This document shows positions 13,769-56,684 of a stretch of 64,000 bases of DNA, in pieces. The notes under the pieces were generated by a model. The model saw only the letters and a list, made by a program, of their open reading frames with translations, ran no database searches and was not told the DNA's origin. This DNA comes from a phage: sequence record PZ452595.1. One strand, 5' to 3'. The position numbers and the translations under genes were made by a program. Position 1 is the stretch's first letter, and the number at the start of each line of letters is the position of its first letter.

Positions 13769-14793
<1,025 letters not shown>

Positions 14794-14797
<4 letters not shown>

Positions 14798-15153
14798 ATT
14801 ACCTCCCACTGAAAAGAGCTAGAAGCAAATCCGCTATCTTTAATCATTTTAACTAAAGTTACCATTCCTCTGTTAACTGCTTGTGCGATTTCATCAAAAA
14901 CTTCATCAATATCACCATAAAGATCGCTAAAAAGTTCTAATACGTTCTTCTGAACTTTTAATTTACAGCCAACAAATTCGCCTACAGTAAATTCGTTTCC
15001 GCCAATTCCAGTGTAAAACGTAATTACACCAGTTAATGGTCTTTCACTAGAACATAGGTCGTGTGATAAATTAATATAAGCCGTCCCGGGTGTAGTTTTA
15101 AGTTGGCAACGAATACTTACTCGAGCAATTCCAGCTACACGAATGTCAGACAT
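14794..15153 (-). CDS. hypothetical protein (frd.x block)
   Basis: 119 aa, ATG start, stop overlaps next ORF start (ATGA). Confidence 0.55.
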
Positions 15154-15163
15154 ATTATTTTCC

Positions 15164-15406
15164 TCAAACAGACTTTTTCACAATTTTCCAATCAGCTTTA
15201 AACTGCTCGACGTCAGAATGGTAAATCCAGAATCCTGCGCTTTCTCCGTCTTCATAAAGAGGACATCCATCGCATTCATCTTCCCATCCCATGTCACGTA
15301 AAAGATGTTCAGCTTTTTCAACAAGCTCAGAATCTTTACCGATGATATTAAAATACCATTTACCTCTAACTTCTGAATCTTTGATGCTCTGGCGTTGTAA
15401 TCTCAT
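15164..15406 (-). CDS. hypothetical protein (frd.x block)
   Basis: 80 aa, ATG start preceded by GAGGAG; early promoter 15435..15464 upstream. Confidence 0.55.
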   Translation of the reverse strand: MRLQRQSIKDSEVRGKWYFNIIGKDSELVEKAEHLLRDMGWEDECDGCPLYEDGESAGFWIYHSDVEQFKADWKIVKKSV

Positions 15407-15434
15407 TTTATTCTCCTCAGTAGTTGATAGGGTA

Positions 15435-15464
15435 ATAGTATCACACTACTACCCTGTTGTAAAC
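15435..15464 (-). promoter_or_regulatory. T4-type early promoter
   Basis: Minus sense GTTTACA, 17-nt spacer, TGa-TACTAT; shares the CAGTAGTTGATAG leader motif with other sites. Confidence 0.55.
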
Positions 15465-15466
15465 AA

Positions 15467-15727
15467 TTATTTTTGAATTTTATCGAGCCACTTACCAAGC
15501 TTAATCATTTCTTTAGTAGCCTTTTCCATACTTCTGAACTTAACCAATAGAGGATAGGTATCGACACCCATAACTAAACTGGTTACAAGACTGTGTTCAC
15601 CCACAAGCCATAATGAATACGTTTGAATATCGAGCCCGTAATTTCTGTCTTTATGGACCCGTACACCCATCACTTCAAATTTCTCACTAGCTTTTTCTAC
15701 CGCATCCAGGAAATCATCTTTAGTCAT
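15467..15727 (-). CDS. hypothetical protein
   Basis: ATG at 15727 (86 aa, MTKDDFLDAVEK...); track start is TTG. Confidence 0.45.
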   Translation of the reverse strand: MTKDDFLDAVEKASEKFEVMGVRVHKDRNYGLDIQTYSLWLVGEHSLVTSLVMGVDTYPLLVKFRSMEKATKEMIKLGKWLDKIQK

Positions 15728-16160: not shown

Positions 16161-16391
16161 TTATTGTTCAATCAGTCCCATGTAAAATTCTGCGTCTTCA
16201 GAATCCATGCCATCACAATATTCATTAGCCATAAAGCGGGTGAGGTCTTCAAGAGGACCTTCAATGACAATAGAAAAATTGCAATAATTGGGATCATCGT
16301 GAATACTTGTGATACTAAGTTCAGGATAACGATTACGAATAATTTCTTCGATATATTCAAAATCAACGATGTCAATATCAACTTTAGCCAT
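16161..16391 (-). CDS. hypothetical protein
   Basis: ATG at 16391 preceded by AGAGGA (76 aa); the longer track frame would start inside the promoter. Confidence 0.45.
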
Positions 16392-16434
16392 ATTATTTTC
16401 CTCTTTAATTATCAGCAGTATTGCCGATAGTTTT

Positions 16435-16463
16435 ATAGTACCATGGAAGGACAAGGATGTAAA
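16435..16463 (-). promoter_or_regulatory. T4-type early promoter
   Basis: Minus sense GTTTACA, 17-nt spacer, TGG-TACTAT; immediately downstream of the gene 32 terminator. Confidence 0.55.
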
Positions 16464-16491
16464 CAGTTTTGCGAAAAATTTTTAAAATAAA

Positions 16492-16514
16492 AAAGGGGAC
16501 CCTAGAGGTCCCCA
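16492..16514 (-). terminator. rho-independent terminator after gene 32
   Basis: Stem GGGGACC / GGTCCCC with 5-nt loop, followed in minus sense by UUUUUAUUUU. Confidence 0.65.
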
Positions 16515-16535
16515 ATTAATTAGTAATATAATCTA

Positions 16536-17444
16536 TTAAAGGTCATTCAAAAGGTCATCCAGGTCCGTGTCATCAGCACTAGATGAACTGCCAGAGCTTG
16601 AGCTCATAAAATCATCTTCAGTTTTTGTATTGAAGTCATCAACATTGAATGCATCCAAATCATCAGCAACTTTATCAGCTTTCTTAGCAGCAGTTGCAGC
16701 GGCACCGCCCATCACAGCAGTTCCCATAACTTGACCGAATTTAGTGCTCAGTTCTTCAAATGATTTGAATTTATCTTTAGAAGTCATTTCAGAAAGGTCA
16801 ACCATTTGTTCGAACAGTTCTTTCTGGAAAGATTCATCATCAATGTTTGGAATCGCAGATTGATTCAGGAATTTAGATTCATCGTAGTTACTAAATCCAG
16901 AAACCTGTTTAACTTTCAGTACAAAGTTAGCACCTTCCCACGGACAAGTTACATCAACCGGAGTTTCACCCATTTCAACATCAACTGCAATCATTGCATT
17001 GATTTTATCCCAGATTTTCTTACCGAAACGGTATTTAAATACTTTACCTTCATTTTCTGGAGCAGCTGGGTCTTTTACAACAAGAATGTTAGCCCAGTAA
17101 GAAGTTTTACGTTTAACAAGACTGTACTCTTTATTGTCAGTGTTGTACAGATCATTTTTACTGATGTATTGACATACTGGGCAAGAATCGTAATCACCGT
17201 GGGTAGATGAACAGTTTTCAATATACCATTTACCATTTTTCTTGAAACCGTGATTTACAAGAATTGCGAATGGTGCTTGTTCATCATTTTTAGACGGAAG
17301 AAAACGAATTACTGCTTGACCGTTACCCGCATTGTCGAGTTTCAGTTTCCACTCGCCTTTATCTTCAGAAGAAAAACCACCTTTATTTCCAGCCAGTTTA
17401 GCCATTTGCGCAGCGAGTTCAGCAGTAGATTTACGTTTAAACAT
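16536..17444 (-). CDS. 32: single-stranded DNA binding protein gp32
   Basis: 302 aa, [24 protein letters not shown]...; zinc-binding residues and acidic C-terminal tail; matches T4 gp32. Confidence 0.96.
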
Positions 17445-17518
17445 TTTTATTTCCTTTTTAATTTAATTAACAGTTGGTGCTATGACGATGTATGACCTCA
17501 TAGCTGGTCAGTAAGATA

Positions 17519-17543
17519 ATTATAATCTATTTATAATAAGCAA
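17519..17543 (-). promoter_or_regulatory. gene 32 regulatory region: middle promoter with overlapping late promoter
   Basis: Minus sense tTGCTTa (MotA-box-like), 12 nt, TATAAT; a late-type TATAAATA lies inside the spacer (17528..17535); AU-rich leader follows. Confidence 0.5.
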
Positions 17544-18197
17544 TTAATACTTGCAAGATTTCACAGTTTCAATGAAAACATTTTTAGCTTTCTGTGAATC
17601 AATATTTAAAATTTTTCTATAAGCCTTTAACTTTATAGAATAATTATTCCAGACTAAATTATCAGTCTGTTCATCATGTTTATCAATTATATTTAAAAAC
17701 GAATCAAGCAAGATAAACGTCTCAAACGAAATTATGTTCGATTGCAGAAGTTTAAAAATATAACTTGACTGAACCTTTGGATTATATTCAAAGATTTCTT
17801 TAAAAGCAGAAACTTCAACTTTTTTACTAAAATAGTAAATATTGCGAATATCTTCTTCAAACTTAAATTTAATTTGCTTTAAGCGTCCGATATATTCACG
17901 ATAAAACACAAGTGCATCAGCGTCAGAGATGTCACCAATCCAAGCATCTTGGTTAGCAACCAAATTACTTATAAAGATTAAAGCAAGTTCCTTTAATTTA
18001 TATTTTTCTGATAACTTCTGGAAAAAATACTTATCCCTTCGCTTTTGATAAGCGGCATCAGACACCCGCATGCACCAATTATACTTAATTACATCATACT
18101 TTCCATTCATATGCTGTTTTATCATTAAGTATAATTTATAAACTGATTTACCATCAATGTATCTTTCACCACCAGCAGGCATGCGGAGTTTAATCAT
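17544..18197 (-). CDS. 59: gp59 helicase loader
   Basis: 217 aa, ATG start; same length and position (33-59-32) as T4 gp59. Confidence 0.9.
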   Translation of the reverse strand: MIKLRMPAGGERYIDGKSVYKLYLMIKQHMNGKYDVIKYNWCMRVSDAAYQKRRDKYFFQKLSEKYKLKELALIFISNLVANQDAWIGDISDADALVFYREYIGRLKQIKFKFEEDIRNIYYFSKKVEVSAFKEIFEYNPKVQSSYIFKLLQSNIISFETFILLDSFLNIIDKHDEQTDNLVWNNYSIKLKAYRKILNIDSQKAKNVFIETVKSCKY

Positions 18198-18532
18198 AGC
18201 AGAAAATCTAATGTATTAGTTTTTTCACAACGAACAACAGAAGGACGTAAAAGATTTTCGTCAATAGCTTCTGACTGAATTTTTTCAATTATACCCGAAG
18301 GAATAAATTTAGCAAATTGAGTTTCAGGAATAGAGTTTTCTTCTAAGAATGCTGTTGTAGCTTCAAGATAACTCATTCCAAACTCTTCTACCATTTTTTC
18401 AATAATAAATCCGTTTTCTTGACGATCAAGAAGCTTTGCTATTTCATCCTTTTCTTTCTTAATTGAAAGTTCTTTTTCTGAAAGACCGGTCTCATCGACC
18501 GGACGAATATCATTTAGAGAAAACTGTGTCAT
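18194..18532 (-). CDS. 33: gp33 late transcription co-activator
   Basis: ATG at 18532 gives MTQFSLNDIRPVDE... (112 aa as in T4); track start is TTG; stop overlaps gene 59 start (ATGA). Confidence 0.88.
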   Translation of the reverse strand: MTQFSLNDIRPVDETGLSEKELSIKKEKDEIAKLLDRQENGFIIEKMVEEFGMSYLEATTAFLEENSIPETQFAKFIPSGIIEKIQSEAIDENLLRPSVVRCEKTNTLDFLL

Positions 18533-18779
18533 AAAGTTCAACTACCTCTTCAGTTTCAGCTTCAAACACATCACGGTTATCTTTATGATACAAAGCTAAT
18601 AGACGATTAAACATCTTACCATCAACGCCAAGTTCATCTTTGGCACGAATTCGAATATCTTTAATCAGTTCATTATAACCGGAAATTTTCAGTTTATGAT
18701 CAGATGCTTCTTTAATAAATTTAGCCAAGTCTTCGCCATGGATAGCTTCATCAAATTCAACCATTTCTTTTTTAGCCAT
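18510..18779 (-). CDS. dsbA: double-stranded DNA binding protein DsbA
   Basis: 89 aa, ATG start; length and position between rnh and 33 match T4 dsbA. Confidence 0.85.
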   Translation of the reverse strand: MAKKEMVEFDEAIHGEDLAKFIKEASDHKLKISGYNELIKDIRIRAKDELGVDGKMFNRLLALYHKDNRDVFEAETEEVVELYDTVFSK

Positions 18780-18787
18780 TATTCACC

Positions 18788-19705
18788 TCAAAATTCATTA
18801 ATGCTATTAGTTAATTTAGAAAGACCCGCTTTTACAAAATATGAATAAATTTTGCCACGCGGTGGTAATTTATATGAATTATAGTAATTCACAATGTTTG
18901 AAGCAATATTATCAGGAATATAATCAAAATCAATTAGAACTAAATTTTCTTTATAACGATTATATTCAGATTCTGTGAGAAGCACCTTAGCTTGCTCACG
19001 GTCATTAGCAATAGCTTCAACGATTGAAGTTTTCATTGAAGGAGTTCGTTCACCTTCAACTCTGGTAAACCAAAAGTCAGATCGTACTTTAACTGAAGCA
19101 ACGTTATCCTTTTTGTCGCCTTTAAGGATTTTAGTCATACAATCAATTTCAGCAGAACCGCTTTTAATTTTAACCCATTTCTTATGCATCGGAGACCATT
19201 GCTTAACATTTGGATATTTGTGAAGCTGAGTGAAGTCACCATCAGATGAAATGATTAAAATCTTATGTCCTTCTAAAGAGAACTTTTTAACAAGAACAGC
19301 AATGTGGTCATCTGCTTCATACTTATCAATATCCATAACAATGTATGGCATATAAGCTTTTAATTCATCTATAACTTTATGGCTGGATTCAAAATAACCT
19401 TCCCAGTCCCAAGTAGATTCTTCTCGTGCTTTTCCACGGTTTTTCTTATAATAATAGGCGAAATCACGACGCCAATATCCAGATTTCGCGTTATCAATAC
19501 ACAGTACAATTTTAGTGTATCCAAGCGTTTTTGCTTTTTTGACATTAAACTTAATTGAGTTCAATATCAAATGACGAACCATTGATAAATTAATTTTTTC
19601 TTTATCTGGGAAGTTTACAAGAGCAGTTGAAAGCGCAATTTGACTAAAGTCAATAAAGCAAATTCCTTCTTTGTAGTCTTCATCCAGCATCATTTCTAAA
19701 TCCAT
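18788..19705 (-). CDS. rnh: RNase H (5'-3' exonuclease / flap endonuclease)
   Basis: ATG at 19705 gives MDLEMMLDEDYKEGIC... (305 aa as in T4); FEN-family acidic residues; track start is TTG. Confidence 0.92.
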   Translation of the reverse strand: MDLEMMLDEDYKEGICFIDFSQIALSTALVNFPDKEKINLSMVRHLILNSIKFNVKKAKTLGYTKIVLCIDNAKSGYWRRDFAYYYKKNRGKAREESTWDWEGYFESSHKVIDELKAYMPYIVMDIDKYEADDHIAVLVKKFSLEGHKILIISSDGDFTQLHKYPNVKQWSPMHKKWVKIKSGSAEIDCMTKILKGDKKDNVASVKVRSDFWFTRVEGERTPSMKTSIVEAIANDREQAKVLLTESEYNRYKENLVLIDFDYIPDNIASNIVNYYNSYKLPPRGKIYSYFVKAGLSKLTNSINEF

Positions 19706-25530: not shown

Positions 25531-28500
25531 ATGGCTACTTTAAAACAAATACAATTTAAAAGAAGCAAAACTGCAGGAGCACGTCCTGCCGCTTCAGTAT
25601 TAGCCGAAGGTGAATTGGCTATAAACTTAAAAGACCGTGTACTTTTTACTAAAGATGACCAAGGAAATATTATTGATCTGGGTTTTGCTAAAGGCGGTAG
25701 TATTGACGGGAATGTTATTCATACAGGCAATTATAACCAAACTGGCGATTATACTTTAAATGGTGTCTTCACTCAGACTGGTAATTTTAATTTAACTGGT
25801 ATTGCTCGAGTAACTCGCGATATTATTGCCGCTGGGCAGATTATGACTGAAGGCGGAGAACTTATTACAAAAAGTTCAGGTACAGCGCATGTTCGTTTTT
25901 TCGATAACAATAGTCGCGAACGCGGAATCATTTATGCCCCGGCTAATGATGGTTTAACTACACAAGTACTTAATATCAGGGTTCAAGACTACGCCGCTGG
26001 TAGCGAAAGCACTTATGCATTTTCAGGCAGTGGACTATTTACTTCACCTGAAGTATCAGCATGGAAATCTATTTCGTCTCCACAAATTCTGACCGACAAA
26101 GTTATTACAAATGGGAAGAAGACGGGAGATTATGACATTTATTCTATGGCAGACAACGTTCCATTGTCTGAAAGCACTACTGCTATTAATCATCTCCGTG
26201 TTATGCGCAATGCTGTAGGCGCTGGTGTATTCCATGAAGTTAAAGATAATGATGGAATAACTTGGTATACTGGAGATGGCTTAGACACTTATCTTTGGTC
26301 GTTTACCTGGACCGGTGGATTGAAAGCAGGCCATTCTATTTCTGTTGGTACTCCTGGTGGCAATAAAGGATACTCTGAATTAGGGACTGCTTCAATTTCT
26401 CTTGGCGATAATGATACCGGGCTAAAATGGCATCAGGACGGATATTTCTATACAGTAAACAACGGAACAAGAACTTTCATCTATGGTCCAGGAGAAACGC
26501 AAAGCCTTAGAAAAATGGTTATGGCTTATTCTCCAGATGGGCTTCTTATGACAACGCCACCGACAGAAAACTATGCTTTGGCTACTGTTGTTACTTACCA
26601 TGATAATAACGCATACGGTGACGGTCAAACTCTTTTAGGATATTATCAAGGCGGTAACTATCATCATTATTTTCGCGGTAAGGGTACTACAAACATTAAT
26701 ACTCACGGCGGTTTGTTAGTTACTCCTGGTAATATTGACGTTATTGGTGGTTCTGTTAATATCGATGGTAGAAATAATGCTTCTACACTGATGTTTAGAG
26801 GTAACACAACTGGTAGTAGTTCAGTTGATAATATGACAATTTCCGTTTGGGGCAATACGTTTACTAATCCTAGTGTAGGTAATCGTAAAAACGTCATGGA
26901 AATTTCTGATGCAACTAGCTGGATGAGTTATATTCAAAGACTTACAACAGGTGAAGTAGAAATGAACGTTAACGGTTCATTTGAATCATCTGGTGTTACT
27001 GCTGGAAATAGAGGAGTTCACACAACGGGCGAAATTTCATCTGGGGCTGTGAATGCGCTTCGTATTTGGAACGCAGATTATGGAGCTATTTTTAGACGTT
27101 CAGAAGGTAGTCTTCATATTATTCCAACTGCTTATGGTGAAGGTAAACATGGTGATATCGGCCCACTTCGCCCGTTTAGTATGGCTTTAGATACCGGTAA
27201 AGTTACTATTCCAGATTTACAATCAAGTTACAATACGTTCGCAGCGAACGGCTATATTAAATTTGTTGGTCATGGAGCGGGTGCCGGCGGTTATGACATT
27301 CAATATGCTCAAGCGGCTCCTATTTTCCAGGAAATTGATGATGATGCTGTAAGCAAATATTATCCTATTGTTAAACAGAAGTTTTTAAATGGTAAAGCCG
27401 TTTGGTCTTTAGGTACTGAAATTAATTCGGGTACATTCGTTATTCATCATCTGAAAGAAGATGGATCACAGGGCCATACATCAAGATTTAATGCTGATGG
27501 TACAGTTAATTTCCCCGATAACGTTCAGGTCGGCGGCGGTGAAGCTACTATTGCTCGCAATGGTAATATTTTCTCAGATATTTGGAAATCGTTTACTTCT
27601 GCGGGAGACACTACAAATATTCGCGATGCGATAGCTACTCGTGTTGCCAAAGAAGGCGATACGATGACCGGTAGGTTGACTTTATCTGCTGGAAATGATG
27701 CCCTTGTTTTAACTGCGGGCGCTGGCGCTTCATCGCACATCCGTAGTGATGTAGGTGGTACAAATAATTGGTATATAGGCAAAGGCGGCGGCGACAATGG
27801 TCTAGGTTTTTACAGTTACATTACACAAGGCGGTGTATACATAACAAATAACGGCGAAATAGCGCTTTCTCCTCAAGGACAAGGAACATTTAATTTTAAT
27901 AGAGACCGCCTTCATATAAACGGTACACAATGGACTGCGCACCAGGGTGGTGGCTGGGGAAACCAATGGAATCAAGAAGCTCCGATATTTATAGATTTTG
28001 GTAATGTTGGTAATGATAGTTATTATCCTATTATTAAAGGAAAATCTGGTATTACTAATGAAGGATACATATCTGGCGTTGATTTTGGTATGCGACGCAT
28101 TACTAATAACTGGGCGCAAGGTATTATTCGTGTAGGTAACCAGGAAAATGGTTCTGATCCACAAGCTATCTATGAATTTCATCACAATGGAGTTCTGTAT
28201 GTTCCTAACATGGTTAAAACTGGAGCAAGATTATCAGCTGGCGGTGGTGACCCGGTGTGGCAAGGCGCATGCGTTGTTATTGGTGATAATGATACTGGAT
28301 TAGTTCATGGTGGTGATGGACGAATTAATATGGTTGCAAATGGAGTTCATATTGCTTCATGGTCTTCATCTTATCATTCTCATCCAGGCCTTTGGGATTC
28401 AAACGGAGCTTTGTGGACAGAAGTTGGCAAAGCAATTATTTCTCATGGTCATTTAGTTCAGGCGAATGACAGCTATTCAACGTTTGTCCGTGATGTTTAT

Positions 28501-28842
28501 GTCCGCTCTGATATTCGTGTTAAAAAAGACCTCGTTAAATTTGAAAATGCTTCTGAAAAGCTTTCTAAAATTAACGGTTACACTTATATGCAGAAACGTG
28601 GAACTGACGAAGAAGGTAATCAGAAATGGGAACCTAACGCCGGTTTAATTGCTCAAGAAGTTCAAGCTATTTTACCAGAATTAGTTGAAGGCGACCCGGA
28701 TGGTGAAGCTTTACTTCGTTTGAACTATAACGGTGTAATTGGTTTAAATACAGCTGCAATCAATGAGCATACTGCAGAAATTGCGGAACTTAAATCAGAA
28801 ATTGAAGAACTTAAAGCATTAGTTAAATCATTGTTAAAATAA
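25531..28842 (+). CDS. 37: long tail fiber distal subunit gp37 with C-terminal intramolecular chaperone module
   Basis: 1103 aa, AAGAGGA upstream; the C-terminal ~110 aa begin at an S|DIRVKKDL motif and end in a coiled-coil heptad segment. Confidence 0.95.
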
Positions 28843-28847
28843 TAAGA

Positions 28848-28861
28848 GGGGCTTCGGCCCC
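28848..28861 (+). promoter_or_regulatory. intercistronic hairpin between genes 37 and 38
   Basis: GGGGC-UUCG-GCCCC immediately followed by the gene 38 SD GGAGG; no U-run. Confidence 0.4.
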
Positions 28862-28873
28862 TTGGAGGTTTAT

Positions 28874-29650
28874 ATGGCAGTAACAGGACCGTGGGTAGGA
28901 TCGTCTGCAGTAGTTAATACAGGACAAAATTGGATGGGTGGTGCCGCGCAGAGATTGAGAATGGGAATTCCGTTTTGGATGAGTAATATGATAGGTCGAT
29001 CTGTTGAAATAATTCACACGCTTGGAGCAGACCATAACTTCAATGGTCAATGGTTCCGAGATAGATGTTTTGAGGCAGGTAGTGCACCTATAGTGTTTAA
29101 TATCACTGGAGATTTAGTATCATATTCTAAAGATGTTCCTTTATTCTTCATGTATGGAGATACACCCAATGAATATGTTCAGTTGAATATACACGGCGTA
29201 ACGATGTATGGTCGTGGCGGTAATGGCGGTAGCAATAGTCCTGGCTCAGCTGGAGGTCATTGTATTCAAAACGATATTGGTGGGAGACTAAGAATTAATA
29301 ATGGTGGAGCTATTGCAGGCGGCGGTGGCGGCGGTGGCGGCGGATATTATTCTCCTTTTTCACAAATGAGATTGACCTTTGGCGGCGGCGGTGGGCGTCC
29401 GTTTGGTGCACCTGGCGGATCTATTGATATGCAATCAGGAGCGACTGGCGGTACTATTTCTGCACCTGGCTCAGGATCCGTGAATGGTATCTATAATGGT
29501 GGAAACGGTGGTGAAGTAGGTTCCGCGGGAGGTAGATGCAATATTCGCGGTCAAGGATCTGAATATAATGGCGGCGATGCTGGTTATGCCGTCATAGGGT
29601 CCGCTCCAACGTGGATAAATGTTGGAGCAATATATGGTCCAAGAGTATAA
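28874..29650 (+). CDS. 38: gp38 receptor-binding adhesin, T2-type with polyglycine motifs
   Basis: ATG at 28874 with GGAGG 5 nt upstream (258 aa; the track frame adds 4 codons from a TTG); C-terminal half has Gly runs ([20 protein letters not shown]) separating short variable segments. Confidence 0.88.
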
Positions 29651-45285: not shown

Positions 45286-45828
45286 TTAATTCAAAATAGC
45301 TACCACTGCACTACGAGGTACTACGCTAAAATCACCTGCATGAACAACGTTCAGAAGTTCAACACCATCTTCAATCCACTGGTCTGTTACCCAACCACAG
45401 ACCGAAATAAATGGGGTCTTGATAGCTACTGCACGAGTCAAAAGGTCAGTAGGATCAACTTCTTGGAAGAGGATAATCTCTGCTTCAAAGACTATAGTTT
45501 TAATTACTTCATCATTATCTAAGCGATGTGCTCGAATCACGTAAGCTTTATTCTTATCATACCAATTACTTTTTGAAAAACTTTTAACCACAAACTCACC
45601 TTCACCAAAAACACTGGTCAATGCTTTATAACCCAAATTTAGTTCAGTAGTTTTAATTTCAGTTTCAACCAGTTTGTAGGTTTTGCCAGTTTCGATGGTC
45701 CGAGCAGTCATAAATGTTTCCTTAATTTCTAATGGTTTAACAAGAGTGCCGTACATGCTTGCTATATCCATATCAAACGGTTTATCTACAGGATTCGGTG
45801 TGTATTCAGGATTATAATTAAATTTCAT
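45286..45828 (-). CDS. hypothetical protein with MotB-like C-terminal domain (motB.1 position)
   Basis: 180 aa; C-terminus GWVTDQWIEDGVELLNVVHAGDFSVVP aligns with MotB AYITDQWVEDGVKLYNAVFLGTYKVIP. Confidence 0.6.
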   Translation of the reverse strand: MKFNYNPEYTPNPVDKPFDMDIASMYGTLVKPLEIKETFMTARTIETGKTYKLVETEIKTTELNLGYKALTSVFGEGEFVVKSFSKSNWYDKNKAYVIRAHRLDNDEVIKTIVFEAEIILFQEVDPTDLLTRAVAIKTPFISVCGWVTDQWIEDGVELLNVVHAGDFSVVPRSAVVAILN

Positions 45829-45830
45829 AA

Positions 45831-46343
45831 TTATCTCATTTCAATAAAATCTACAAGTTCAGCATGGGATTTACGGAACATTACTTGATGCCCACCAATG
45901 ATAACTTGGTCATCTGGCACTTCATAAATCGCAATGTACATTCCACGATCTTTTAAGTCTTCACGCTCTTCTCGGGTGAACCATCTCATCATATCATATT
46001 CAGTAGCGAAAGCAAAATGATATAATGCAATAAACCACAATGGAATATAATTTTCAATTCGTGAATAATCTTTATTCCATTTAGTTTTAATAGCATCATT
46101 AGCATTTTCAACTAATAACTTATCATCGTGCGGAATAGGAATACTTTCATGACTTTCATAATTATCGCTATGATGATGAAATGACGATGAATTAATACCG
46201 CAAAATTTTAGCCAAGTTCGAGTTTTCATAGAATCAAATCCACGATAAGGAGTTGATTGAACGCATAACTCTTGCCTAATTTTCATTATACCACTATCAT
46301 CATTTAATGCGCTAAACGATGATTCAACACGATAAATTTTCAT
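45831..46343 (-). CDS. hypothetical protein
   Basis: ATG at 46343 preceded by GAGGA (170 aa); track start is TTG inside the promoter. Confidence 0.5.
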   Translation of the reverse strand: MKIYRVESSFSALNDDSGIMKIRQELCVQSTPYRGFDSMKTRTWLKFCGINSSSFHHHSDNYESHESIPIPHDDKLLVENANDAIKTKWNKDYSRIENYIPLWFIALYHFAFATEYDMMRWFTREEREDLKDRGMYIAIYEVPDDQVIIGGHQVMFRKSHAELVDFIEMR

Positions 46344-52631: not shown

Positions 52632-53091
52632 TTATTTTACCTAAAACAATAGTAGGAGCATCGTCAAATTTATGAATTTTGAGTAAATTTGGATTTAAAT
52701 TATTCCATAAAGAGGTAATAAAATATGATAGCGCATTTTCTTCTGTAATTATAAATTTATTTCCCTTATCTATTTTCCAGTCATATATTGAATCATATGA
52801 ATAGAAGGACAATGGTTTATTATTATAATATGCTTCACTAACATCAATATAGTTAGATTTAGTAAATGCTTGAATTGCCATAAATGGAGAATTTTGTACA
52901 GTTTCAATAATTCCGATCTTTTTAAGTTTTATTTCAACATCTTCTGGAATTGGCATTGAAATAAAATCTTCTACTAGATACATATTATTGTCATATCTTT
53001 TATCAATCATTACTGCTACGGTAATTGGAACATCCTTGACAAACGCCATACTAATACTATTGATAGACATTTCAAACAAAATTGCTTCCAT
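52606..53091 (-). CDS. hypothetical protein (mrh/srh region)
   Basis: ATG at 53091 preceded by GAGGA (161 aa); track start is TTG. Confidence 0.5.
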
Positions 53092-53099
53092 AATTTTCC

Positions 53100-53441
53100 T
53101 CAATCGCAAGATGTAGATGAACAACTAGAATCACAAGAACTTCCACATGAATCGCCCGTCCATACATGAACAGGAACATTAGTATCATATGAATCAGAAC
53201 TAGACTGTGTTTTCTGTGTGTTAGATGATGTAGTAGGTACTGACCAGCGCCAAGGATTTTTATAATATTCTTGGGCTTCTTCATAAGTCATAGTAACTGC
53301 TTCTACTGTTCCATCTCCCATATAAACATATTCAACTACAGTTAAAGGAAGGTAGTCATTTGAAATAGGAACTACACCTTCCCCAGGAGTCGTAGAGAAA
53401 AAATCCGTAAAGAAACTTTTAAACCAGTTAAAGATAAACAT
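53100..53441 (-). CDS. hypothetical protein with Cys/Ser-rich C-terminal tail
   Basis: 113 aa; C-terminus [18 protein letters not shown] (C-x3-C-x3-C-x4-C). Confidence 0.5.
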
Positions 53442-53647
53442 TACAAAAAGCCTCTCTTGAATTCGACTTGCTTTTCGCCATAATCATATCGAATCTCTGC
53501 ATTAAATTCGACAGAACCATCTGCGTACATCATAAATGAATGCACAACAACTTCTGTAGACCATGGTTGTAGTTCATATTTCTTCATTACATGCCGTGAA
53601 ATGATAATATCTAAATCTTCATTTGGTTTAATCCAGCGATTTAACAT
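53441..53647 (-). CDS. hypothetical protein
   Basis: 68 aa, ATG start. Confidence 0.45.
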   Translation of the reverse strand: MLNRWIKPNEDLDIIISRHVMKKYELQPWSTEVVVHSFMMYADGSVEFNAEIRYDYGEKQVEFKRGFL

Positions 53648-53712
53648 AGTACTCTCCTCTATAAGATAATTCTATTATACCATACTCATTTTGGAAAGTA
53701 AACCGTTTAAAT

Positions 53713-53739
53713 GAAAAAAAGGACTCCCGAAGGAGTCCT
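53713..53739 (-). terminator. rho-independent terminator after soc
   Basis: AGGACUCC-UUCG-GGAGUCCU followed by UUUUUUU in minus sense; identical to the element at 361..383. Confidence 0.65.
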
Positions 53740-53744
53740 TGAAT

Positions 53745-53990
53745 TTATTCACCAGTTACTTTCCACAAATCTTCATTTGCAGCAATCCATTCAGTACGTT
53801 GATTTTCTTCATATACTGTAGAATATGCTGCTTTTTCTGAAGGGAATGTCTGGTAATGAGCACCAGAAATTTTGTGAACGTCAGAGTAAAGAGGGAAAGC
53901 TACGGAAATTTCCTTTCCTTCAATTTTCTTATTTCCATCTAATTTCTGCTCAAATGTTTTAATATTAACATAACCGCGAGTACTAGCCAT
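53745..53990 (-). CDS. soc: small outer capsid protein Soc
   Basis: 81 aa, MASTRGYVNIKTFEQKLDGNKKIEG...; late promoter TATAAATA upstream. Confidence 0.9.
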   Translation of the reverse strand: MASTRGYVNIKTFEQKLDGNKKIEGKEISVAFPLYSDVHKISGAHYQTFPSEKAAYSTVYEENQRTEWIAANEDLWKVTGE

Positions 53991-54020
53991 GTAATTCTCC
54001 TTTTATTTAAATTACATGAT

Positions 54021-54028
54021 TATTTATA
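54021..54028 (-). promoter_or_regulatory. late promoter for soc
   Basis: Minus sense TATAAATA about 30 nt upstream of the soc ATG. Confidence 0.55.
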
Positions 54029-54073: not shown

Positions 54074-54592
54074 TTAATAGCCTCGATCTTGACGTGCGAA
54101 ATTTTCGGCATTTTTCAGATAATAAAGTTTAAAGATTTCCTCAGCTGACATTCCAAGAGCAATAAATTTATTCATAAAAAAGTGAAATTGGTCAATCAGT
54201 TCAAATTTAATTTCAAGCTGATCTTCAGGAGATAAGTCTTGAATTTTCTTGGATTGCATTTCAGAATAACGTTTCTTCCAAGGTTTCCATACGGCAGAAG
54301 CTTCTTTTTCACCATTACTCATACCACCAAGAGAAGTATATAGCTCGCGAGTTTCATCTGCGATATAATCGTCTTGGTTTCGCAGCCAAGCAAGAACTTC
54401 TCCTGCGGTTTCAAGTGAATCAGGATGACGATTTGTTTCTGGCTTATCATTAGCCAAACGAATCTGTAAAGACCGCTGCATATCAAGCATAACCTGCAAT
54501 GGGTCTTTTTCATCACCGAGAATATCCCAGTATTCATTTTGAGCTTTATCAACACCTTCGATCAAATGAGCGCATTCATTAAAGTGAGCCAT
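54074..54592 (-). CDS. 56: dCTP pyrophosphatase gp56
   Basis: ATG at 54592 gives MAHFNECAHLIEGVDKAQNEYWDILGDE... (172 aa, MazG-like); the track frame has a hydrophobic N-terminal extension. Confidence 0.88.
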   Translation of the reverse strand: MAHFNECAHLIEGVDKAQNEYWDILGDEKDPLQVMLDMQRSLQIRLANDKPETNRHPDSLETAGEVLAWLRNQDDYIADETRELYTSLGGMSNGEKEASAVWKPWKKRYSEMQSKKIQDLSPEDQLEIKFELIDQFHFFMNKFIALGMSAEEIFKLYYLKNAENFARQDRGY

Positions 54593-54626
54593 TATTTTTC
54601 CTTTCAATTCATGGGTTAGTAGATTA

Positions 54627-54650
54627 ATTATACAATAAATATATAAAGCA
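54627..54650 (-). promoter_or_regulatory. MotA-dependent middle promoter for gene 56
   Basis: Minus sense tTGCTTtA (MotA box), 11-nt spacer, TATAAT. Confidence 0.55.
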
Positions 54651-54663
54651 ATAAGGAGGACAT

Positions 54664-54864
54664 ATGGTACAAAAATTAATGGCACTTGTTGATGCCATAA
54701 AAGGTAATAAGAAACGTATAGCTTTTACTATTTCTGCTATGGTAGGAATTTTACTCTGGAACTTTATTCTATCACCTGTTGCGATTGCACATGGTATTAA
54801 TATTCCAGTAGTTACTCTTGATACATTCGTAGATTTAGCATTTGCTTTAGTTGGGTTAATTTAA
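54664..54864 (+). CDS. small two-helix membrane protein, divergent from gene 56
   Basis: 66 aa plus-strand ORF (MVQKLMALVDAIKGNKKRIAFTISAMVGILLWNFIL...); AAGGAGGA 5 nt upstream of ATG; stop overlaps the gene 61 stop convergently. Confidence 0.4.
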   Translation: MVQKLMALVDAIKGNKKRIAFTISAMVGILLWNFILSPVAIAHGINIPVVTLDTFVDLAFALVGLI

Positions 54865-55889
54865 ATCTTGGCATATTTAGATAGCCGCATTTTAGCCATC
54901 AACCCCTGGGCAATATTATTTTTCATATATTCCATAATTTGTTCAGTGGTTGCACCTTCCTTTCTAATCATATCATTAACATCTTTTGATTTCCAGGGAG
55001 ATTTATCCCAAAACATAACCCTTTCTCCTGCATCAACTAATTTAGTCATTCGCTTAATAGTGTCAGGATGACGAGGTTCATTATCTAAAACCCACACACG
55101 TCTATCTTTAAATGGAACAACTTCTAGGTCTAATTGACCACCCGTAATAGCTATACCATTTTCAATAAAAAGTGAATCTATAGGTCCTTCTAGAACATAT
55201 ACATCACCATCTTTAACTCGTTCTACTCCATAGATTTTTGTTGCCTCAGGATAAGCTTTGATGGTGATATATTTTTGAGGAGCATCTTTCTTTAATGCAC
55301 GTCCTTGAAAAGACTCAGCTTTTCCATTAGCATTATAAATTGGAATAACAAGACGAGGCTCAGAAATTTCCTTTTTATATGTTCCCGGTGCTATACTATT
55401 AACTAATTTAGGCCATTCGGTTGTAAACCAAAGATATTTCCATTTATCCTTTGGAATACAACGAGCTTTTACGTATTTTATAATTGGATGGTCTTCCGCC
55501 AGTTTATCTAATCTAACACATGACGGAAGAGATTTAATTATTTTCTTTTCAGGTTGTTTAGGAAGTTCTTTAAGTTTTTCTACTGGACGGCTTTTACCTT
55601 TTTCTTTTCTTATTTCAAAGATATACTCACGATATAAATCAGGTTCAAACTCCTTTAAATATATTCCGATTGGTGCATGATAGTTACAGTTATAACAATG
55701 AATATTTCCTTCATTATTATCACCATAATACCATCCACGAGCTTTATTTTGGTCGGTTTTTGAATCTCCACAAACAGGGCATCTAAACCGTAATTTAAAA
55801 GTTGAACTATTATTTACTTGTGTGAATTTAGGTAAATGGGCTAATGCACGGTATGCAAACTCATTATCAATCCAAGGTATTGATGACAT
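54861..55889 (-). CDS. 61: DNA primase gp61
   Basis: 342 aa; N-terminal zinc ribbon CPVCGDSK…CYNC and Toprim region; same length as T4 gp61. Confidence 0.95.
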   Translation of the reverse strand: MSSIPWIDNEFAYRALAHLPKFTQVNNSSTFKLRFRCPVCGDSKTDQNKARGWYYGDNNEGNIHCYNCNYHAPIGIYLKEFEPDLYREYIFEIRKEKGKSRPVEKLKELPKQPEKKIIKSLPSCVRLDKLAEDHPIIKYVKARCIPKDKWKYLWFTTEWPKLVNSIAPGTYKKEISEPRLVIPIYNANGKAESFQGRALKKDAPQKYITIKAYPEATKIYGVERVKDGDVYVLEGPIDSLFIENGIAITGGQLDLEVVPFKDRRVWVLDNEPRHPDTIKRMTKLVDAGERVMFWDKSPWKSKDVNDMIRKEGATTEQIMEYMKNNIAQGLMAKMRLSKYAKI

Positions 55890-55891
55890 TT

Positions 55892-56056
55892 TTACTCTTC
55901 TTTTTCTTTAGATTCCTCTTTTTTCTTTTTAGGAATCTGTTCAGGACCTTTATTTACTACAGCGCCTGATGTTGTTCCAGTAGAGATATTTTCAGGATTA
56001 CCACCTGAATCTCCAGCGACCATATCTTCTTTGATAAATTCTTTATATGTTTTCAT
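55892..56056 (-). CDS. small hypothetical protein (61.1 position), not in ORF track
   Basis: 54 aa hand-translated (MKTYKEFIKEDMVAGDSGGNPENISTG...); stop 3 nt before the gene 61 ATG. Confidence 0.4.
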   Translation of the reverse strand: MKTYKEFIKEDMVAGDSGGNPENISTGTTSGAVVNKGPEQIPKKKKEESKEKEE

Positions 56057-56057
56057 A

Positions 56058-56684
56058 TTAACCTCTATTCATAAAAGCATTAAAAATTTGGTCATCAATA
56101 GAAACATTTACTTTAGACTGTTTTTCAGATGGCAATTCATATCCACATATTACAATTTTATGATCAATATCAAAATACACAGAAGCAATATGATTAATGA
56201 TATTTTCAGTGAAGTCTAAATCAACATCAATGTCTTTTTGACCAAAGCCCAAAGGATAAATAATGCGAGTAATTCGATTATCTTTAACAAAGATTCCACC
56301 GACATACTCTGTGCTGCGTTTAAAGTCTACACGCCGACGAAATGAAAAATATTCAGGCTCTTTATGAGCTCGGCTCATAGGGCACAACGAATAACTAGAA
56401 TAAGAGATGTCAAATCCTACGCCTTCAATATGAACTAAATTGTCATGATTAAACCAATTATAATCGTATGCCAAGTCCATTAGATTGTCATATGTGAAAG
56501 GCACCGGATTAACATCATTGGTCACAAGCATATAATTAGCAACTGCTATAATTTCATTATTTTTAACGAATACAAACCGTGATTGATGCGAATGGCCTGG
56601 ACCTGCGTTTTCACGATTAATGATATAACACTGGGCACCTTTATATGTGTACGTGTCTTTACACTTGTGCATTTGATAAAGCAT
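56058..56684 (-). CDS. hypothetical protein (61.2 position)
   Basis: 208 aa, ATG start, overlaps the sp stop. Confidence 0.6.
   Translation of the reverse strand: MLYQMHKCKDTYTYKGAQCYIINRENAGPGHSHQSRFVFVKNNEIIAVANYMLVTNDVNPVPFTYDNLMDLAYDYNWFNHDNLVHIEGVGFDISYSSYSLCPMSRAHKEPEYFSFRRRVDFKRSTEYVGGIFVKDNRITRIIYPLGFGQKDIDVDLDFTENIINHIASVYFDIDHKIVICGYELPSEKQSKVNVSIDDQIFNAFMNRG

Follow-up and report, generated by a model that had tools for sequence, protein, structure and literature searches.

A close counterpart of the locus studied here is that of phage T4, in which the genes follow the order soc-segF-56-dam-61 (NC_000866; 56-dam-61 at 16270-18963). An earlier note on this DNA had given this arrangement for T4, with dam between genes 56 and 61 and segF between soc and 56, and the T4 record agrees with it. 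Polymorphism of the SegF target site in gene 56 is known (PMC2988022, PMC5931544). The late promoters of T4 have also been catalogued; A(-13) is the commonest accepted variant of TATAAATA, occurring in 9 of 50 listed T4 late promoters, and G or C at -13 is rarer among them than A or T (PMC2988020). A dRNA-seq study of T4 describes 150 start sites on the phage genome, of which 22 are antisense (bioRxiv 10.1101/2024.04.04.588121).

The DNA analysed here, a stretch of 64,000 nucleotides that we refer to as the window, is a segment of a Tequatrovirus (T4-like) genome. Its closest record at the 56-61 locus is that of Shigella phage JK38, with 99.5% identity, and since identity elsewhere is 92-98%, the window phage is an isolate distinct from JK38. 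Three parts of the window (25677-29304, 45405-46311 and 56103-56664) have no JK38 megablast match of at least 500 bp. The first of these is the distal tail-fibre (gp37/gp38) region, where a difference from JK38 is expected for host-range variation.

On the minus strand, the window carries soc, encoding the small outer capsid protein (53745..53990, 81 aa), which was taken from the ORF list, has 100% amino acid identity to T4 Soc over the tblastn alignment and is annotated in JK38. It is followed by a divergent allele of gene 56, encoding dCTPase (54074..54592, 172 aa, 76% amino acid identity to T4), and by gene 61, encoding DNA primase (54861..55889, 342 aa, 99% amino acid identity to T4 gp61). 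The true start of gene 56 is the ATG at 54592 (MAHFNE...), the upstream GTG being the choice of the ORF lister. The gap between genes 56 and 61 is thus 268 bp long (54593..54860), and the three genes are nearly contiguous, as the earlier note had described them with its estimate of about 270 bp. From this gap an ORF of 66 aa runs on the plus strand (54664..54864). It belongs to PHROG 2024 (RB69ORF029w / RB32ORF030w / JK38_00030) and is predicted to encode a single-pass inner-membrane protein; its TAA stop codon overlaps that of gene 61 by 4 nt (TTAA). Just downstream of soc lies a GC-rich hairpin (53719-53740) whose 9 bp pair perfectly and which has T-runs on either strand; it matches the putative terminator t15.02 in T4 record X01416.

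When aligned to T4, window positions 53000-54028 match T4 14585-15610 at 97.5% and positions 54653-56426 match T4 17725-19500 at 98.1%, whereas positions 54074-54612 match T4 16270-16805 at only 78.8% nucleotide identity. A T4 segment of 919 bp (16806-17724), comprising the gene 56 middle promoter, dam and the dam upstream region, corresponds here to 40 bp (54613-54652). The right-hand homology begins exactly at the Shine-Dalgarno sequence (SD) of the small ORF, which means that the ORF and its SD behave as a unit. The absence of segF from the window likewise follows from the aligned blocks. The two loci therefore share their flanking genes, the small ORF and the position of the gene 56 middle promoter, and differ in that segF and a dam cassette of ∼880 bp with its own upstream region occur in T4 only. 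Gene 56 itself, at 78.8% nucleotide (76% amino acid) identity to T4, lies between soc and 61 flanks that are 97-100% identical, a pattern that fits the known SegF target-site polymorphism. With segF absent, the spacing between soc and gene 56 is just 83 bp, without the soc.1/soc.2 reported for T2.

That dam and segF are missing here, as the earlier note had indicated, is confirmed by the T4 alignment and by tblastn. No homologue of T4 Dam was detected in the 64-kb window (best tblastn E = 2.3), and no ORF with a DPPY motif was found in it. A dam gene elsewhere in the genome, for which the earlier note had suggested a search, was looked for in the window and in the whole JK38 genome, and no Dam was found; in the complete JK38 genome there was no tblastn match at E up to 1. 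Because the whole genome of this relative is without Dam, the window phage, judged by its sequence, is probably Dam-less.

The earlier note could be read as implying that loss of dam is unusual and that it is linked to the small ORF, and neither implication holds. A T4-type Dam (at least 90% identity) is present in ∼182 phage records, whereas a small ORF of the Tequatrovirus type (at least 80% identity) is present in ∼503. In T6, JK38, the RB3-RB10 group, RB18, RB69, moskry, VR26 and JD18, gene 56, the small ORF and gene 61 occur with no dam between them, while in T4, T2, L010 and L011 the small ORF coexists with an adjacent dam. The idea that the small ORF is a replacement of dam was rejected on the strength of these four genomes, and the ORF has no link to dam. 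Where dam is present in Tequatrovirus records with standard coordinates, it sits at the 56-61 locus. What lies between gene 56 and the small ORF differs from phage to phage, and may be only dam, dam with a further ∼660 bp (L010), a single ORF of 101 aa, or three small ORFs. The small ORFs found there, one in CkP1 and three in L022, are unrelated. Such contents, mapped at L010 1841-2501, L006 2139-2444 and L022 3192-3966, are the behaviour of a cassette-exchange hot spot. Since the cargo differs among phages, the region bounded by the promoters of gene 56 and of the small ORF is a variable cassette slot in which dam is optional. The dam-less 56-61 interval is a common form of this T-even cassette site, and probably the ancestral one. 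The absence of dam is thus routine T-even cassette variation and the majority state, for which no special explanation is needed.

The small ORF is a different matter. By tblastn it matches 698 phage records, 687 of them over at least 80% of its length. With the more distant CkP1_0028 as query and a limit of E = 1, 935 records were recovered, of which the weakest are not significant on their own; they span Tequatrovirus, Mosigvirus, Gaprivervirus, Karamvirus and Jiaodavirus and include T4-like phages of Klebsiella, Citrobacter and Salmonella. The match to the PHROG 2024 profile has E = 4.1e-31 and aligns residues 2-66 with positions 1-65 of 65. In every T4-like genome examined, from at least five Tevenvirinae genera, the ORF converges with gene 61. 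The 4-nt overlap of stop codons is found in the window, T4, JK38, moskry, RB69, CkP1, VR26 (second copy) and L022, while JD18 has a 17-nt gap in its place. A profile search of 1.8 billion representative proteins gave only 20 clusters, all of 33-82 aa, and single-protein scans of IMG/VR gave only seven loci. In Gaprivervirus VR26 (L005 2495-2901) there are two tandem paralogues, VR26_031 and VR26_032; the second is of a divergent type (MGTLFYQIWKL...) that some Klebsiella phages, Potts1 and Marfa among them, carry too.

Annotation of this gene is uneven. The window ORF is 100% identical to JK38_00030, 95-97% identical to the T4 copy and 54% identical to RB69ORF029w. The T4 copy lies at NC_000866 17738-17938, inside a stretch of 309 bp between dam and gene 61 that bears no annotation in NC_000866.4, AF158101.6 or X01416. 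The ORF is annotated in RB32/RB51 (RB32ORF030w), in RB69 (RB69ORF029w) and in automated annotations of T4 derivatives, and hundreds of genomes already list its product as a hypothetical protein. RB69ORF029w, RB32ORF030w and JK38_00030 are the same gene, in the same position and orientation by gene 61, with no substantive difference. No function has been assigned to PHROG 2024, and the protein matched neither a Pfam nor an NCBIfam model. Our literature searches on RB32ORF030w and RB69ORF029w, and on T4 ribosome profiling, start sites and small ORFs, yielded nothing specific, and papers on phage transposon mutagenesis contained nothing on the T4 56-61 locus.

The missing T4 annotation in these three records would fit another reading, in which the frame is open by chance only, within an AT-rich non-coding spacer that is kept for the terminator of gene 61 and the promoters of 56 and dam. 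The gene 56 promoter does abut the SD of the small ORF, and a terminator-like hairpin followed by TAATTTTTGT lies on the minus strand downstream of gene 61, within codons 6-12 of the small ORF (54679..54698; -8.2 kcal/mol). However, this hairpin, present in T4 and other Tequatrovirus, is limited to that genus and is not conserved in Mosigvirus, Karamvirus or Jiaodavirus, and it was rejected for this reason as the cause of the conservation of the region. The substitutions are, moreover, of the coding type. Differences at first, second and third codon positions number 26, 8 and 41 between the window and moskry, and 5, 0 and 10 between moskry and L013, and the Nei-Gojobori dN/dS is 0.10-0.31 wherever dS is measurable. 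Protein similarity extends down to 30-50% identity across genera. Among 100 sequences W32, N33 and G44 are invariant and L31, P38, A40, P48 and G64 are at least 90% conserved; the window ORF carries the PHROG 2024 core, a TM helix with W-N, then P, A, G and an LP...(D/E) tail. The orthologues examined are 63-69 aa long, and ATG and a strong SD are kept in each lineage examined. The break in T4 homology exactly at the SD also speaks against a chance frame, which we consider very improbable. The small ORF is a real, conserved gene under purifying selection, and its position by the primase gene is conserved.

The AlphaFold model of the product, built from the 100-sequence alignment, has a pLDDT of 82.7 and contains helices at residues 2-12, 16-42 and 52-63. 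The first is a short N-terminal helix and the second a single TM helix of 27 residues, which carries the invariant W32-N33 and the near-invariant P38. The C-terminal helix, of 12 residues, is too short to span the membrane. The earlier note had described a membrane protein with two helices; a membrane protein with a TM helix at 16-42 is retained by the model, while the second helix, at 52-63, falls short of a membrane span. The N-terminal 18 residues have a net charge of +4, and the 24-residue tail after the TM helix is acidic and hydrophobic, with two Asp and no basic residue. On the basis of these charges, of the hydropathy and of the helix prediction, a single-span topology with the N-terminus in and the C-terminus out is suggested. 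Of its tryptic peptides only LMALVNAIK in T4, or LMALVDAIK in the window phage, should be easy to detect. The product would then be a single-pass inner-membrane protein with its N-terminus inside, and the short C-terminal helix would probably lie at the periplasmic face of the membrane. No structural neighbours outside its own family were found by Foldseek in the PDB or in BFVD, and no functional match was found in Pfam, NCBIfam or the PDB.

The translation signals of the gene are strong. The SD, TAAGGAGG, lies at 54652-54659 on the plus strand, 4 nt before the ATG, and the near-consensus SD claimed by the earlier note is thus present. Across the 64-kb window, an SD match of at least 6 nt precedes just four of the plus-strand ATG ORFs that are 40 aa or longer. 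Three of the four are in the late tail-fibre/holin block (an internal ATG of the 1103-aa tail-fibre ORF, the start of 28862-29650, and the holin start); the fourth is the small ORF, whose SD match is the best of them all. In JK38, the closest annotated relative, none of the other 88 features in the first 50 kb is a CDS on the plus strand. Both the SD scan of the window and the JK38 annotation therefore support the view that this is the only plus-strand ORF with good signals in the minus-strand early region. RNA structure in the predicted 5' leader is not significant (z = -0.84), a value that led us to drop the idea of a structured translational switch.

Two oppositely oriented promoter signals appear to occupy the short spacer upstream of the gene. 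On the minus strand, a putative gene 56 middle promoter (54627..54651) consists of a MotA box, TTGCTTTA (54651->54644), an 11-nt spacer and a -10 element, TATAAT (54632->54627). This agrees with the pattern of middle promoters, in which a MotA box of the form (a/t)(a/t)TGCTT(t/c)A is followed at ∼12 bp by a -10 element of the form TAnnnT. The -10 element starts 40 nt before the ATG, which is the geometry of T4 P(M)16.53 as annotated in X01416, so that box, -10 element and geometry all favour the middle promoter that had been proposed in the gap. On the plus strand, nested in the spacer of this promoter, is a late-promoter-like motif, AATAAATA, an A(-13) variant of TATAAATA, at 54634..54641, 23 nt before the ATG of the small ORF. 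A plus-strand promoter inside the 5' end of gene 56, which the earlier note had proposed to look for, is not needed, as the late-like motif is in the intergenic spacer.

Several properties of this motif resemble those of late units. The sequence WATAAATA occurs at 12 sites in the 64-kb window, as compared with 23.2 ± 5.3 expected, a depletion consistent with selection against stray late promoters. Four of the other 11 sites are each followed, after 19-35 nt, by the ATG of a known late gene (34, 36, t or soc). That of soc, TATAAATA (54021..54028, minus strand), is 31 nt before the ATG and is the putative P(L)15.32 of T4 record X01416, and the holin gene t of the window has the same AATAAATA variant with a similar SD geometry. 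The small ORF thus has an accepted variant of TATAAATA, and its spacing of 23 nt compares with 19-35 nt for t, 36, soc and 34.

The motif is also retained across lineages. In six of seven independent, mutually unalignable upstream contexts (the window type, the T4 type, Mosigvirus, VR26, JD18 and L022), NATAAATA is found ∼16-23 nt before the ATG, while CkP1 has only ATTAAATA; given the base composition, ATAAATA would occur by chance in a 20-nt span with a probability of ∼0.007 per context. Its full form varies, being AATAAATA here, GATAAATA in T4 and CATAAATA in VR26, JD18 and L022. The forms of these other phages, and the CkP1 sequence, count against a late promoter, G or C at -13 being the rarer choice in the T4 list. 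As far as can be judged from sequence, the small ORF is similar to the T4 late genes t, soc, 34 and 36, in which (T/A)ATAAATA precedes the ATG by 19-35 nt and a short leader bears a strong SD; unlike them, it stands alone in an early/middle region and is convergent with an early gene. Because the A(-13) variant is an accepted one, the motif is depleted in the window, the spacing is that of late genes and NATAAATA is retained, we infer that the small ORF is expressed late, from a gp55-type promoter.

With this in mind, we regard as likely an overall explanation in which the window combines a dam-less cassette slot with a real conserved gene for a late-expressed membrane protein. According to this explanation, late in infection gp55-RNA polymerase would initiate at AATAAATA (54634-54641), within the spacer of the MotA-dependent gene 56 promoter, giving a leader of ∼17 nt with a strong SD; the RNA would begin at about 54,647, the counterpart of about 17,722 in NC_000866. 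The 66-aa product would insert in the inner membrane, its basic N-terminus (+4) remaining in the cytoplasm, one TM helix crossing the membrane and the 24-residue tail reaching the periplasm. It would then act late at the envelope, where one may speculate on an accessory role in lysis timing or membrane integrity. This last step is a weakly held best guess, and a late envelope or lysis-related role of the small protein is a tentative proposal that may well be wrong. Its pointers are weak: the membrane location, the late timing, the AATAAATA variant and SD geometry in common with holin gene t, and the tail-tip and lysozyme neighbours of distant family members. Against such a role, the small gene is in no lysis cassette of T4-like genomes, being far from e, t and pseT.2/pseT.3, its product is without the usual holin features, and its most constant neighbours are DNA-metabolism genes. 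We know of no lysis or r-type locus that classical T4 genetics mapped between 56 and 61.

The genes of distant family members (P0118, P0120, P0121, P0122 and P0124) come shortly after a large tail gene in phage contigs of non-T4 type; P0118 matches PHROG 2024 at 6e-11, and a tblastn search with it found no cultured phage of its group. In these contigs the protein is kept without a primase neighbour. A recurring block, found in L021, L023, L024, L025, L028, L029 and L030, consists of the large tail gene, a protein of ∼94 aa (coiled-coil-like in L028), endonuclease VII and the small membrane protein, and in L021, L023 and L024 the large tail gene has a Phage_Tail_Tip Pfam domain. The endonuclease VII gene is the most consistent neighbour, being directly adjacent, and often overlapping, in five non-T4 contigs. 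Conserved proteins of ∼180 aa and then 105-109 aa follow in the P0118, P0121 and P0122 contigs; they follow in L021, L023, L024 and L025. In L024 and L025 the third gene downstream of the small gene, on the same strand, is T4-lysozyme-like, and such a gene is near the distant homologues in L027 and L028 as well. In L024 a 91-aa protein with an N-terminal TM helix and a coiled coil is encoded just beyond the lysozyme-like gene, on the opposite strand.

These neighbours bear on other functions that could be proposed for the gene. The lysozyme-like genes of L024, L025, L027 and L028, the small size and membrane nature of the protein, the resemblance of its late-type signals to those of gene t and the name 'Holin' given to one orthologue in UniProt/BFVD could together indicate a lysis protein proper, of the holin or antiholin type. 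That name is, however, an unreviewed automatic one attached to a single orthologue; no holin family in Pfam, NCBIfam or PHROGs was matched, and in the T4-like genomes examined the gene is never adjacent to e, t, rI, rIII or spanin genes. As far as is known, T4 lysis is already accounted for by t, e, rI, rIII and pseT.2/pseT.3. As compared with the small single-pass membrane proteins that phages use in lysis and exclusion (T4 holin T topology, Imm and lambda-type holins), the protein is similar in size, is predicted to share late timing, and has a single N-in TM helix as does T4 T, but it lacks the large periplasmic domain of T and the second full TM helix of Imm and class II holins. It has no sequence or fold similarity to holins, no lysis-cassette location in T4-like genomes and no basic residues at its C-terminus, where holins usually have a charged tail. 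We therefore consider a strict holin or antiholin unlikely. The endonuclease VII genes of the five non-T4 contigs, together with the fixed position by primase gene 61 in all T4-like genera, could instead suggest a membrane partner of the DNA-metabolism machinery, for example an anchor or regulator of primase or of recombination/packaging nucleases. Adjacency in compact phage genomes is nevertheless weak evidence; the protein would offer only ∼16 cytoplasmic residues for interaction, and in T4-like phages the gene is on the opposite strand from gene 61 and in a different temporal class, so that the two would not be co-expressed. A role of this kind is improbable in our view.

It may also be asked whether the important product is the RNA rather than the protein. 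A late plus-strand RNA, antisense to primase gene 61, could shut down primase mRNA late in infection, while the 3' untranslated region of early 61 mRNA could mask the message of the small ORF. The genes are convergent with a 4-nt stop overlap in most lineages, so their transcripts must overlap, and there is no plus-strand terminator-like site at 54864-56200; with no plus-strand terminator in the next 1.3 kb, a late transcript of the small ORF must be antisense to primase mRNA. There are precedents in T4 for sites transcribed on both strands at different times (PMC2988020). However, an antisense role has no need of a conserved frame, an SD or purifying selection, JD18 has its 17-nt gap in place of the overlap, and the distant homologues keep the protein although primase is not their neighbour. 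That the RNA is the main product is, in our estimation, also improbable. RNA and protein roles are not mutually exclusive, and a secondary antisense regulatory role is possible; the protein-level selection would be unexplained by such a role.

The interest of the locus is modest, and lies in a conserved, probably late membrane-protein gene that is absent from the T4 reference annotation, the rest being ordinary natural variation. The T4 reference (NC_000866 / AF158101) omits a gene that is conserved in at least five genera and has late-type signals, and whose product is among the few small membrane proteins that the sampled T-even phages have in common. CRISPRi-ART guides were designed against annotated CDSs only (PMC11879866), and being absent from the T4 reference annotation, the small gene was missed by that approach; annotation-based screens in general would miss it likewise. 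One may speculate, with considerable reserve, that in T4 and nearly every other enterobacterial T-even phage an inner-membrane protein made late has been overlooked, that it would be a player in late envelope events such as lysis timing, lysis inhibition or membrane integrity, and that its transcript would also be antisense to the primase mRNA.
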